Below the pieces are notes generated by a model. It searched no databases, was not told the DNA's origin, and saw only the letters and a list, made by a program, of their open reading frames with translations. From an uncultured Lactobacillus sp. (GTDB lineage Bacteria; Bacillota; Bacilli; Lactobacillales; Lactobacillaceae), in contig CALNAJ010000041.1 in assembly GCA_937874695.1 (NCBI GenBank), positions 1,458-65,457 on the forward strand: DNA of 64,000 bases. Direction: 5' to 3'. Of this stretch, positions 59,930-64,000 are shown one piece after another. Both the position numbers and the translations under genes were made by a program. Position 1 is the first letter of the stretch, and each line of letters begins with the position of its first letter.

Positions 59930-61489
59930 CTACGACTGCACTGGATGTTTAACCCAGCCAAATAGTTGCCGTAGTATCGTGAGCGATTGGCGAAATGATA
60001 GCGTCCCCAAGATTAGAAATGCTGGTAAATATTGAATCAGGTACCGACTTCGACCACCTTCAAACAGCAGTAAGAACATAAACGCCCCAATAATGGTGAG
60101 TCGCAGGACCTGGATAAATTTGTGCTGATCGCTCCAGCCAAAGAAGATGATGACTAGCCAGACAATCCACCAAGCCTGCGCTAAATAACGAAAATCACCC
60201 AACCGGGTTCCATACAAGTAGACAAATTCACGAATACTGCGCGCGAATCCGGTGCCCTTGGGTTTCGTACCATGTAAAATGAAATGACCTTCTTTGATCC
60301 AGGCAAAAGACCCATCAGCGCTGTTATTGCGTTGCTTTTTCACCAAGAAAGCCAGATAGCCTAAAAATCCACGTTGCTTCAGCCGCTTCAGATACATCTT
60401 TTTCGACCAATCCGCCCGTGATTTCTTTGTTGGCAACTGCGCCATCTTTAGCGCATCCTTAGCGTTATAGCCCCCATCCCCAGAAATTCCCATGCTCATG
60501 AAATGGACCGCCGGAATGGCACGCGCCGTATTAATTTTAATGTAGCGCTGCGTGTCGAGAACATGATTACCGGCAACGTAGGCGCCACCGCCAGCCATGC
60601 CGCTGACTAAGAGACAAGTGACAACAATGATTCCCTTGCGTCGGGTCAGTCCCTGCCAGTATTCTCGTCGAATCACCTGGAGCAGTTCGACTAAAACGAT
60701 AGCGATCAAGGCCACAATGGCGGACGGCTTCATGAAGTACGCGGCCGTCACGTTTAGTCCTAAGCCAACTGCGGCCAATAGCTTGAGTGACCAATGCCAC
60801 TGAGCATAACTCAGCACACAGTAACAGAAGATGTAGGCTGAAACGAACGGTAGGACCCAGGCATCGGTATAGGGCACGATGATCATGGGAAAGAGTGCCA
60901 GCCACCCAGCGTGAATGTACATGGCCGCCGGAACCTTGCTTCGGTCGATCACGGCAACGCTGAGGATATTAAACACGGCGGAGAGGTCCGTCAAGATCAG
61001 CGTGACCCAGTCAAAAAACAGCCAAGAGGTCGTGTGAAAGGCCGTCGCTAACCAGTGTTGGGCCAATAGAATCGGCAAGTTGTTCGAGTTTTGGCTAAAG
61101 TACGACATCGTATTAACATCCTTGGGATCAATCAGGGCCTCGTGAATGGCGTCCACATCAAAGCCAATGGCCGGATGCATGCACAACACAAAAACCACCT
61201 GCCAGACAACGGTCAGTAATAAAAGTGTGACCGCCGTCACAGCTTGGTGACGAACGAAGATCCATTTGAACACGCGTGACACCTGAGGATAAGCGAAACC
61301 CACAATCAGCGCGGTAATGGCCACAATAAATGCAATTGCCGTAACGACGGTCGTACCACTCCCGGTCTTGGCGTTGTCACCCAAAACCAAGTTGGCCGAG
61401 GTAATCGCGAAGTACGTGGTCAACCCAAAGAAGAAGTAAAACAGGCCCCGAATGAATCGGTTACCGTAATTAAATAACTGATGGTCCAT
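59930..61489 (-). CDS. large polytopic membrane protein, last gene of XrtG-type operon
   Basis: 519 aa, about 12 TM helices. ATG 61489 after GAAGGAGGAG. 76 nt downstream of the GT2 gene. Confidence 0.75.
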   Translation of the reverse strand: MDHQLFNYGNRFIRGLFYFFFGLTTYFAITSANLVLGDNAKTGSGTTVVTAIAFIVAITALIVGFAYPQVSRVFKWIFVRHQAVTAVTLLLLTVVWQVVFVLCMHPAIGFDVDAIHEALIDPKDVNTMSYFSQNSNNLPILLAQHWLATAFHTTSWLFFDWVTLILTDLSAVFNILSVAVIDRSKVPAAMYIHAGWLALFPMIIVPYTDAWVLPFVSAYIFCYCVLSYAQWHWSLKLLAAVGLGLNVTAAYFMKPSAIVALIAIVLVELLQVIRREYWQGLTRRKGIIVVTCLLVSGMAGGGAYVAGNHVLDTQRYIKINTARAIPAVHFMSMGISGDGGYNAKDALKMAQLPTKKSRADWSKKMYLKRLKQRGFLGYLAFLVKKQRNNSADGSFAWIKEGHFILHGTKPKGTGFARSIREFVYLYGTRLGDFRYLAQAWWIVWLVIIFFGWSDQHKFIQVLRLTIIGAFMFLLLFEGGRSRYLIQYLPAFLILGTLSFRQSLTILRQLFGWVKHPVQS

Positions 61490-61565
61490 TCCGTTCTCCT
61501 CCTTCACTGATTGTTGACCTAAGATAGCTATTGGTGCCCACCGCCACTGCATTGCCAGCTACGCT

Positions 61566-62915
61566 TTAGTTCCACTCGCTGCCCTTCTTGCTGCGCAGAT
61601 AATGCACATCGTGATGAACAACGTGTTTCGCCTCATGCGTTTCCGTTGAAAAGGTCGCCGTATTCCAGACACCGGGTAATGACATTGAGTTGATGACGCC
61701 CACTAGTCGAATCCAGGAAACAAAGAAATTATAGAGTGGCAGAGACCACACGACCCAACTAATGCTGTGATAGAATTTTCGTTCATTGGTAAATTTAGTC
61801 AGTAACCGTCCTACGCTGACATAATTGACTAGCGAGACGAAGACGTACAGGAGATAGATCACAATGTACGATAGCCCTAAGACGACGGGCGAGTACCGGA
61901 AGAATAGCAACACGATACTAGCAAACATCCAGATCATCTTGGGAAAAACGAAAGTGTGGTCGATAATCATGCGCCGAACCAAAAAGTTCTTAAAGAACTG
62001 GCCCAATTGCGCGTTTTGATGCATGTATTGCTTGGAGACTTCCAGCTCACCACGAATCCAACGCTGGCGCTGCTTGTAGAGCTGTTCCAATCCGGATAGT
62101 GGCTCGATGTAAAAGATGGCATCGGCACAGAGCATCACCTTGCGCTTCAGCCGTTGCCGTACTTGAAAGGTCATGTCGGTATCTTCGCCGACCGTATCTG
62201 TATTATACATAAAAGTATCTAACAGCGTGTCCTTACGAAAGGCTGAGAAAGCCCCCGACATCGTGAATAATTCGTTATTGTCCGATTCAATCGTCCGCCC
62301 GGACAAGAAAGCTTGGGCGTATTCAAAGTACTCCGTCTTCTGGAGGAAACGCAGCCAGCGGTCCTTGGTGCGTTTGATTTGATAGCGTTGCGTGAGAATT
62401 GTTCCCGTCATGGCGGCCAGATCGATGTCATTTTCAAAGTGCAGCACCATATTCATCAGTGCATTCTGTTCCAGGACACCGTCACTATCAATGTTGACGA
62501 TATAGGTGCCAATACACTGATAGATGGCCCCGTTCAGTGCCTTGGCTTTCCCCTGATCCGTCTGAATGAACTGCATGTTGAGATTGAAGTGATTCTGGGC
62601 CCGGGCAAAAGAGCTAAAGCTATCGTCCGTACTCTGATTATCAGCCAGTACGATCTGCATACTATCATTGGGATACGTCGAATCATTGATCGACTGCAGA
62701 CACGCAAAAAGCGTGTCCTCAGAATTGTAGACTGGCACGATAATCGAGATGAACGGTAATTTAGACGGCGCGGAAAGATCCTTAATGTGCCGACTTTGAC
62801 GCATCAAATGAAACGCCGAGATCAGCGATGGGATGATTTCAACAACAATGGGAATCAGGGCCCAGGTAATCCAAAAGCCCATTTGCGTTAGCGTTAAATT
62901 AATAAAGTAATTCAC
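61566..62915 (-). CDS. processive family-2 glycosyltransferase (PNAG/cellulose-synthase-like), XrtG-associated type
   Basis: ISIIVPVYNSED, NIDSDG, VGEDTDMT and QRQRW (QxxRW) motifs, flanked by TM helices. GTG 62915 is 6 nt after the xrtG stop. Confidence 0.85.
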   Translation of the reverse strand: MNYFINLTLTQMGFWITWALIPIVVEIIPSLISAFHLMRQSRHIKDLSAPSKLPFISIIVPVYNSEDTLFACLQSINDSTYPNDSMQIVLADNQSTDDSFSSFARAQNHFNLNMQFIQTDQGKAKALNGAIYQCIGTYIVNIDSDGVLEQNALMNMVLHFENDIDLAAMTGTILTQRYQIKRTKDRWLRFLQKTEYFEYAQAFLSGRTIESDNNELFTMSGAFSAFRKDTLLDTFMYNTDTVGEDTDMTFQVRQRLKRKVMLCADAIFYIEPLSGLEQLYKQRQRWIRGELEVSKQYMHQNAQLGQFFKNFLVRRMIIDHTFVFPKMIWMFASIVLLFFRYSPVVLGLSYIVIYLLYVFVSLVNYVSVGRLLTKFTNERKFYHSISWVVWSLPLYNFFVSWIRLVGVINSMSLPGVWNTATFSTETHEAKHVVHHDVHYLRSKKGSEWN

Positions 62916-62921
62916 GAATGG

Positions 62922-63518
62922 TTAACCTCTCGAAAAGCGTCGTTTGAAATTGGCATAGAGACTTTGCGACAATTGCGAATAGGTAAAAACATTGTAATAC
63001 AGCATGATGACCAACACATAGAAGACAATTCGGCCCAGAAGCGTGTGCGCCATAAAGTACCAACCGGCACCCCCGAAGTAGACCAACGAAACGACCAACA
63101 TTAAGCGAATCACGTTGGACAGGTAAATCCACAGGGCCCCCATGACCAAATAAAACACCTTCTCTTGACGACTATACGTCGGGAAGAAGGCCAAGAGCCC
63201 TATGAATGCCGTGGTCTCAATGATTCCGGAACATTCATAGTCAATCGACATCGTCACTGGATTCGTGCCGTTGCCAATATAAACAATGCCGTACTTCGTG
63301 AAGACCTGACACCAGTGTGTTAAGTCTCCCAGCGTGGACACGCCATTGATGACTAAATGGGTCATAAACCACACCCAATATGGGTTGCCCAACGCAATTA
63401 GGATAAAGAACAGGCCAACGCTGCCCGCGATAAAGTAATACGCGGAAAGGTGGGCCCGTTTTAACACCGAAATAACGTAGAGCCACCCGATAATACCCAA
63501 TAACAGGTAGCTACTCAT
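62922..63518 (-). CDS. xrtG: exosortase-family transpeptidase, XrtG-like
   Basis: 198-aa polytopic protein carrying the exosortase/archaeosortase Cys-Arg-His signature in order: DYECSGIIE, LSNVIRLM, FMAHTLLGR. ATG abuts the upstream stop (TAGATG). Confidence 0.75.
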   Translation of the reverse strand: MSSYLLLGIIGWLYVISVLKRAHLSAYYFIAGSVGLFFILIALGNPYWVWFMTHLVINGVSTLGDLTHWCQVFTKYGIVYIGNGTNPVTMSIDYECSGIIETTAFIGLLAFFPTYSRQEKVFYLVMGALWIYLSNVIRLMLVVSLVYFGGAGWYFMAHTLLGRIVFYVLVIMLYYNVFTYSQLSQSLYANFKRRFSRG

Positions 63519-64000
63519 CTAAGCATTCCTCTGTTTTTTCGATTTAGATTTTGTTTTGATAAATGTGCCAGCGCCTCCCAGTGCAATCACCATGCCAATA
63601 CCGGCTAGAATGAAGGGACCCGTTGAGCCACCGGTTGCCGTCAGCGTTTGCGTCCCCAAATTGGCATTCTTCATAGTAATCGTCTGTGAGCCACCAGCGA
63701 CCTTGAGCTCGCTCAATGGAATCCTAGCTTCCATGATGTCGTTGTGACCATTAGCTGTCTTGTAACGGTGAACCTTCATCGTCGCCTGGCTGAGATCGCC
63801 ACTACCACCATTTTCACTGTTCCAAGCATTGACCGTCCCAGAAACCGTCGTGTCATCAGACAACGTCCCATCCGTCTTGAACGTCACGTAAAACGTCTTG
63901 CTACCAACATTCAAGACATATCCGGATGGTTGCAAGGTGCTGTACCCGCCACCATGTTCCGGTGACATATTGAGATAAAAGTAAATGTTGTCATCATCCG
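63519..64000 (-). CDS. putative XrtG cargo with Firmicu-CTERM-like sorting signal; 5' end outside window
   Basis: The frame stays open past the track's ATG 63968 to the window edge. C-terminus TATGGSTGP, then hydrophobic FILAGIGMVIALGGAGTFI, then KTKSKSKKQRNA. Confidence 0.7.
   Translation of the reverse strand, partial: DDDNIYFYLNMSPEHGGGYSTLQPSGYVLNVGSKTFYVTFKTDGTLSDDTTVSGTVNAWNSENGGSGDLSQATMKVHRYKTANGHNDIMEARIPLSELKVAGGSQTITMKNANLGTQTLTATGGSTGPFILAGIGMVIALGGAGTFIKTKSKSKKQRNA

Follow-up and report, generated by a model that had tools for sequence, protein, structure and literature searches.

A probable XrtG/Firmicu-CTERM protein-sorting cassette of reduced form in a Levilactobacillus close to L. 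fuyuanensis

To our knowledge, exosortases are widespread, and biochemical data exist essentially only for archaeal ArtA, the sole experimentally studied relative. Interest in XrtG centres on the acceptor to which bacterial exosortases would attach their cargo; its cassettes represent the smallest self-contained version of such a system: one or two cargos, a sortase and two glycosyltransferases, housed in genetically tractable single-membrane lactobacilli. They are suited to deciding between attachment to lipid, wall and glycan, an advantage that belongs to the whole class and not to any particular locus. The XrtG class is already catalogued, and its members are named automatically by genome annotation. 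The XrtG-associated family 2 glycosyltransferase (GT2) of L. brevis was listed in a proteomics paper of 2022 (PMC8951740), the complete four-gene system of L. plantarum was listed from transcript data in 2026 (PMC12854382), and ArtA-dependent C-terminal processing and lipid anchoring have been reviewed (PMC6098224). Here we describe a probable XrtG cassette found at positions 59930-64000, on the minus strand, of a 64,000-nt stretch of contig CALNAJ010000041.1 from an uncultured Lactobacillus sp.; this whole stretch is called the window below. What the locus adds to the class is incremental and consists in the loss of the usual TIGR03112 gene, the division of the cargo between two genes and the presence of a second, paralogous system; the reduced locus is nevertheless useful for picking a minimal experimental system.

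We interpret the locus as a genuine XrtG/Firmicu-CTERM protein-sorting cassette, in reduced form, of a Levilactobacillus close to L. fuyuanensis, and assign this reading a probability of roughly 0.8. All four proteins exceed the curated NCBIfam cut-offs by a wide margin (scores in bits, cut-offs in brackets): the cargo fragment in the window scores 157 with TIGR04145 (50), the exosortase 237 with TIGR03110 (102.75) and 59.2 with the exosortase/archaeosortase signature TIGR04178 (23), the GT2 628 with TIGR03111 (363.95), and the last protein 736 with TIGR03766, 'XrtG-associated glycosyltransferase' (500). The E-values of the four proteins (4e-46, 1e-70, 8e-189 and 2e-221) are far beyond chance, while a Pfam search of the same proteins recognised the GT2 domain only. 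An earlier note, written from the letters of this DNA, had placed the locus in the class formed by XrtG, the Firmicu-CTERM domain and the exosortase-G-associated glycosyltransferase; the scores bear this placement out, and the accessions that it quoted, TIGR03110, TIGR04145 and TIGR03111, all proved correct.

The exosortase displays the motifs ECSG (at residue 95), NVIR (135) and AHT (157), which the note had recognised as the ordered Cys/Arg/His signature of exosortases. Both family models agree with this, as does an alignment of 17 XrtG homologues reaching 44% identity, where Cys96, Arg138 and His158 are invariant together with D93, E95, E101 and N135. Cys, Arg and His are the residues suspected of forming the catalytic triad in both exosortases and archaeosortases (bioRxiv 10.1101/2023.06.07.544157).

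The partial reading frame at the edge of the window carries the tripartite sorting signal with which it had been credited, as judged from both its sequence and the TIGR04145 match: TATGGSTGP is followed by a 19-residue hydrophobic stretch, FILAGIGMVIALGGAGTFI, and a basic tail, KTKSKSKKQRNA. That the window truncates this gene, and that further cargo might lie beyond position 64000, had been foreseen as well. A metagenomic contig that encodes an identical XrtG and is sequence-identical to the window (L001) reaches past its right edge, and there the full cargo gene (9308-10000) encodes 230 aa, comprising a Sec signal peptide (ending ...VANA, with DS following the cleavage site), a beta-rich domain of ~150 aa that begins at IDGNFDDW, and the sorting signal; the full-length protein scores 214.8 with TIGR04145. 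A second, paralogous cargo gene (L001 8339-8980) lies 327 nt upstream of the first; its 213-aa product, which scores 147.3 with the same model, ends in TTTGGSTGG, a transmembrane helix and RRRKVV. This second gene has a Shine-Dalgarno sequence of its own. Next upstream stands an unrelated operon of UbiD/UbiX-type decarboxylase genes, so the system amounts to five genes at the locus. Extension past 64000, which the note had proposed as a way to the full cargo and the promoter, thus delivered the former; a promoter scan of the upstream region scored no better than shuffled sequence.

A comparative scan restricted to one genome per species returned 80 related loci, and the signal recurs throughout the cargo-like proteins of these relatives. 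In 69 cargo open reading frames (ORFs) from 64 loci, GGSTG is invariant and its next residue is P or G, and most of the remaining cargos have near variants (SGSTGP, GASTGP, GGNTGA, GGTTHP). The cargos fall into two size classes, ~220-250 aa and ~390-465 aa. Long cargos, the form found in most species, consist of two tandem copies of one domain and a Ser/Thr-rich linker; the clade of the window has two separate single-domain cargo genes (230 and 213 aa) instead of one two-domain cargo.

The four genes are also co-conserved in other Firmicutes: the GT2 gene directly follows that of XrtG in 80/80 loci, TIGR03766 is present in 75/80 (three of the five exceptions are cut by contig ends), and similarity to the cargo is detected upstream in 75/80. 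None of the three outcomes that the note had named as refuting its reading was observed. The closest match is Levilactobacillus fuyuanensis, with 99% identity in XrtG, 98% in the GT2, 94% in the TIGR03766 protein and 95% in the cargo; other loci come from many genera of Lactobacillaceae and from Enterococcus, Oenococcus and Leuconostoc. In some species (L030, L047, L057, L058, L076, L082, L083) the TIGR03766 gene is found upstream of the cargo and not downstream of the GT2 gene. The Limosilactobacillus loci L082 and L083 have TIGR03766 directly preceding XrtG, and no cargo was detected near them. Complete XrtG cassettes also occur in a metagenome-assembled genome labelled 'Candidatus Methanovirga australis', an archaeon (L077), and in a genome labelled Oscillospiraceae (L065); these probably reflect binning contamination or mislabelling, or possibly horizontal transfer.

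The ORF listing and the sequence both confirm the layout described in the note, with four tightly packed, co-directional genes filling the region (Table 1). The cargo stop codon TAG (63521-63519) directly adjoins the ATG of XrtG (63518), an arrangement that suggests translational coupling. XrtG and the GT2 gene are separated by 6 nt (62916-62921), and the 76-nt gap between the GT2 and TIGR03766 genes (61490-61565) indeed holds a Shine-Dalgarno sequence, GAAGGAGGAG, before the ATG at 61489. An alternative reading frame of 540 aa begins at 61552 for the latter gene, but homologues and the profile match favour the 519-aa start. Beyond the operon, the fold of 59850-59935 has a minimum free energy of -17.9 kcal/mol (z = -2.2), with a hairpin and U-run lying ~30-60 nt past the last stop codon. 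A consensus terminator scan did not flag this hairpin, which plausibly terminates the operon, with modest support from direct folding. Neither riboswitches nor leader RNAs were detected when the cargo leaders and the cassette were searched against Rfam. At 48.4%, the G+C content of the cassette agrees with the 49.5% of the window and gives no hint of recent import.

Table 1. Genes and signals of the cassette and its surroundings (positions in the window)
Feature	Position	Strand	Assignment or remark
Firmicu-CTERM cargo, 3' part (159 codons)	63519..64000	-	TIGR04145; open at window edge
XrtG exosortase, 198 aa, polytopic	62922..63518	-	TIGR03110, TIGR04178; Cys96/Arg138/His158 putative catalytic
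XrtG-associated GT2, 449 aa, GTG start	61566..62915	-	TIGR03111; Pfam GT2 matches
TIGR03766 integral membrane protein, 519 aa	59930..61489	-	TIGR03766; GT-C-like structural matches
Probable intrinsic terminator	59865..59905	-	A/U- and G/C-paired hairpin, then U7 run
Alpha/beta hydrolase	56097-56942		Ordinary context
MarR-family regulator	55606-56100	divergent	Ordinary context
ABC transporter ATPase	54789-55586		Ordinary context
ABC transporter permease	53554-54789		Ordinary context

What could be the course of the sorting reaction? In the scheme that we favour, the small beta-rich cargo and its 213-aa paralogue would be exported by Sec, each keeping its C-terminal helix as a membrane anchor. 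The positive-inside rule would place the Cys/Arg/His set of XrtG in the outer half of the membrane, where the enzyme is expected to cut at or next to GGSTG, at the outer boundary of the cargo helix. If archaeosortase A and sortase A are a guide, cleavage would proceed through a Cys96 acyl-enzyme, and the new C-terminus would probably be passed to an acceptor and not to water.

Another possibility is that XrtG acts as an endopeptidase only, freeing the cargo to the wall or the medium without transfer, while the glycosyltransferases make an exopolysaccharide that a cargo resembling a carbohydrate-binding module (CBM) binds non-covalently. One-step transpeptidation by exosortases and archaeosortases is indeed unsettled (bioRxiv 10.1101/2023.06.07.544157), and a Pfam search of 42 cargo domains gave matches to CBM9_1 (best E = 0.0088) or PF14683 (best E = 0.0044) for six of them. 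These matches all lie below threshold, however, and the structural model of the cargo is of low confidence, so that the resemblance to a CBM serves as a lead only. The same preprint likens the Cys/Arg/His set to the triad of sortase A, and the substrates of ArtA become lipid-anchored (PMC6098224). We regard release without transfer as improbable, and retain the scheme in which the cargo is handed to an acceptor. The cargo domain itself offers few further clues: a 42-sequence profile has no relative among solved structures, and a search of 1.84 billion representative proteins with the cargo-domain profile yielded 323 clusters, some with 2-5 repeats and the variant signals GTSTGP and GASSGP. The cargo domain has no Pfam model, and none of the ten largest clusters contains a Pfam domain, which leaves no functional hint from neighbouring domains.

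The motifs of the GT2, which the note had called typical of processive beta-glycan synthases, are located at residues 143 (DSD), 243 (GEDTD) and 282 (QRQRW). Hydrophobic segments at 14-32 (an N-terminal transmembrane helix) and from 321-362 onwards (C-terminal transmembrane helices) flank the GT-A domain. The TIGR03111 match is accompanied by similarity to synthases of poly-N-acetylglucosamine (PNAG) and cellulose: the PgaC_IcaA model TIGR03937 aligns over residues 18-402 with 125.2 bits (E = 3e-36), below the cut-off of 422.3 that would make the protein a member, and the BcsA structures 4hg6 and 4p00 align over residues 49-360. By these sequence features the GT2 has the architecture of a synthase-translocase and resembles processive synthases. 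Sharing the D,D,D,Q(R/Q)xRW arrangement of PNAG, cellulose and chitin-oligomer synthases, it would most likely polymerise and export a beta-linked glycan.

The gene of the 519-aa membrane protein had been correctly noted as the last member of the operon, although its named glycosyltransferase family, TIGR03766, was overlooked. An AlphaFold 2 model built from 65 sequences (predicted local distance difference test score, pLDDT, 88.7; predicted TM-score, pTM, 0.90) is almost wholly helical with ~12-14 helices of membrane length, consistent with the approximately 12 transmembrane helices counted in the note. All Foldseek matches of this model with a probability of at least 0.92 are glycosyltransferases of the GT-C type, with ArnT at the top and STT3, ALG3, ALG12, AglB and Pmt1/4 among the others. 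A GT-C reading agrees with the NCBIfam name of the family and with the UniRef label 'RgtA/B/C/D-like' borne by one homologue; a GT-C fold is likely, though not proven. The invariant residues D38, D111 and D209 are candidates for catalytic residues; D38 falls in a loop after helix 1 that is predicted to be external. The protein would most likely add or transfer a sugar on the outer face of the membrane from a polyprenyl-phosphate-linked donor.

The same structural matches raise the possibility that both glycosyltransferases serve to glycosylate the cargo itself, in place of building a separate polymer. The TIGR03766 protein would then be a Pmt/STT3-like protein O-glycosyltransferase acting on Ser and Thr of the exported cargo, the GT2 would supply a lipid-linked or oligomeric sugar, and XrtG would anchor the glycoprotein to lipid or release it. 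Protein glycosyltransferases (STT3, AglB, Pmt1/Pmt4) are indeed found among the matches at probabilities of 0.92-1.00, and potential sites are at hand in the invariant Ser-Thr of the GGSTG motif, in the Thr-rich sequence preceding it, and in the long Ser/Thr-rich linkers of the two-domain cargos of other species. The two cargos of this locus, however, have no such linker, the top structural match, ArnT, is a lipid glycosyltransferase, and the architecture of the GT2 with its QxxRW motif is that of a processive synthase-translocase and not of a polyprenyl-phosphate sugar synthase of the GtrB/DPM1 type. We consider cargo glycosylation a minority possibility, the most credible of the alternatives weighed here, yet still unlikely. 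The most economical view is that the GT2 and the TIGR03766 protein would make a glycan or glycolipid, and that the cargo, once processed, would associate with this product or be joined to it.

Several observations weigh against the interpretation of the locus as a working sorting cassette with these assigned roles. A literature search for experiments on any XrtG system gave only mentions at the level of annotation and transcripts. The fold of the cargo was not established, as AlphaFold 2 on a six-sequence alignment reached a mean pLDDT of 53 with a core that is merely beta-sandwich-like, and Foldseek with this low-confidence model returned nothing meaningful. The GT-C matches of the TIGR03766 protein are statistically weak (best E = 8.7e-3, TM-scores 0.31-0.36), and neither a profile search of PDB structures nor the Pfam GT-C families gave a sequence match for it. 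The score of the GT2 lies so far below the PNAG-synthase cut-off that neither its polymer nor its sugar can be named. Finally, the locus lacks TIGR03112, the fifth component of most cassettes: the 76-nt gap holds no ORF, and tblastn found no match to it anywhere in the window. Its absence means either that the gene is dispensable, or that it is supplied by a second XrtG locus, or that the product of the cassette differs.

This fifth component, which together with its absence had escaped the earlier note, is a protein of ~125-145 aa related to PTPS/QueD (Pfam PF01242), encoded between the GT2 and TIGR03766 genes in 64/80 loci, for instance at L009 9962-10342; one example of the family reaches 135 bits with the TIGR03112 model (cut-off 69.35). 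Besides the window, it is missing from the closest relatives (L001-L008), from the L. plantarum group (L044, L059) and from a few others. The loss is recent, because the gene is still present in sister species whose XrtG is 79-82% identical. This clade and the L. plantarum group lost it independently of each other.

Could the cassette then be a decaying, non-functional remnant left behind by the loss of TIGR03112? The lack, here, of a gene that most related loci retain is what such a scenario would start from. All ORFs are nevertheless intact, and every catalytic or invariant residue is kept. The ratio of nonsynonymous to synonymous substitution rates (dN/dS) is ~0.03-0.05 in comparisons with three other related species without the PTPS-like gene, where dS was calculable, although dS is near saturation and the ratios are approximate. 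By this measure the cassette genes are clearly constrained and appear to be under strong purifying selection. The L. plantarum group lacks TIGR03112 too, yet its four-gene transcripts have been reported as over-expressed (PMC12854382). The idea of a decaying cassette was rejected on the grounds of the intact ORFs and the low, if approximate, dN/dS; we hold it to be very improbable.

A second XrtG locus, with ~60% identity in XrtG and a two-domain cargo of 406-454 aa, is present in L. fuyuanensis (contig 28, L052), in L. hammesii (L056) and in strain HBUAS51381 (L076). In L. hammesii this locus includes TIGR03112, so the missing component might be complemented in trans. Paralogous XrtG loci in one genome also raise the question of how two sortases discriminate between GGSTGP signals so much alike.

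In the boldest version of the scheme, XrtG would be a true transpeptidase, and its CBM-like cargo would become covalently linked through the C-terminus to the glycan or glycolipid that the GT2 and the GT-C-like protein produce. We consider this improbable. Should it be true, it would constitute a sortase A-independent pathway of protein-polysaccharide conjugation in the Gram-positive envelope. The clade of the window would then be a naturally minimal form of it, made up of four enzymes or cargos, with each cargo reduced to one domain and the PTPS-like gene missing, and the PTPS-like component would be dispensable for the core reaction.

Two further proteins are encoded near the cassette. A secreted 180-aa protein without a family assignment (59235-59777, minus strand) lies directly past the cassette terminator. 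In close relatives it occurs nowhere but beside the cassette, which in L011 and L012 is bracketed by paralogue pairs of it (43-45% identity). A 355-aa protein (57226-58293, minus strand), encoded three genes past the downstream end of the cassette, begins with a signal peptide and ends in an exoenzyme domain of the ADP-ribosyltransferase kind (PF03496, E = 1.9e-29; PF01129, E = 1.4e-9), with weak similarity to SpvB and certhrax. It is kept in the identical contigs L001-L003, and a toxin-type ADP-ribosyltransferase is unusual for a food-associated lactobacillus. The genes between 53554 and 56942 appear unrelated to the cassette.

Among described systems, the TIGR03766 protein probably resembles the GT-C enzymes (ArnT, STT3/AglB, Pmt, ALG3/12) in its structural matches, its polytopic build and its invariant acidic residues, D38 included; it differs in having no sequence similarity to them, TM-scores as low as those given above and no large soluble periplasmic domain. 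The GT2 is built like the synthases of the PgaC/IcaA and BcsA/NodC types and has their motifs D, D, D and Q(R/Q)xRW, but it scores far below the PgaC/IcaA cut-off, is not an orthologue of that enzyme, and is accompanied by no PgaD/IcaD, deacetylase or cyclic di-GMP-binding partner. As in the XrtA/PEP-CTERM (EpsH) system of Gram-negative bacteria, an exosortase is genetically linked to genes of exopolysaccharide biosynthesis; there, however, many cargos per genome, large exopolysaccharide loci and an outer membrane are the rule, whereas XrtG, at 198 aa, is a much smaller enzyme and has a single synthase-type GT2 as its partner. With ArtA/PGF-CTERM of Haloferax volcanii the system has in common a homologous polytopic enzyme (TIGR04178), the Cys/Arg/His set and a tripartite C-terminal signal, although the signal is PGF there and GGSTGP here, ArtA has many substrates and no dedicated GT2 or GT-C partners, and XrtG serves one or two adjacent cargos in a Gram-positive host with a thick wall. 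Relative to the usual XrtG cassette, this locus has lost TIGR03112 and has its cargo split into proteins of 230 and 213 aa in place of a single two-domain cargo of 390-465 aa. In common with the XrtG system as catalogued in NCBIfam, of which L. plantarum LP_RS09075-09090 (PMC12854382) is an example, it has the families in the order cargo-XrtG-GT2-TIGR03766, the invariant XrtG residues and the sorting signal of GGSTGP, transmembrane helix and basic tail; the L. plantarum locus likewise has no TIGR03112.

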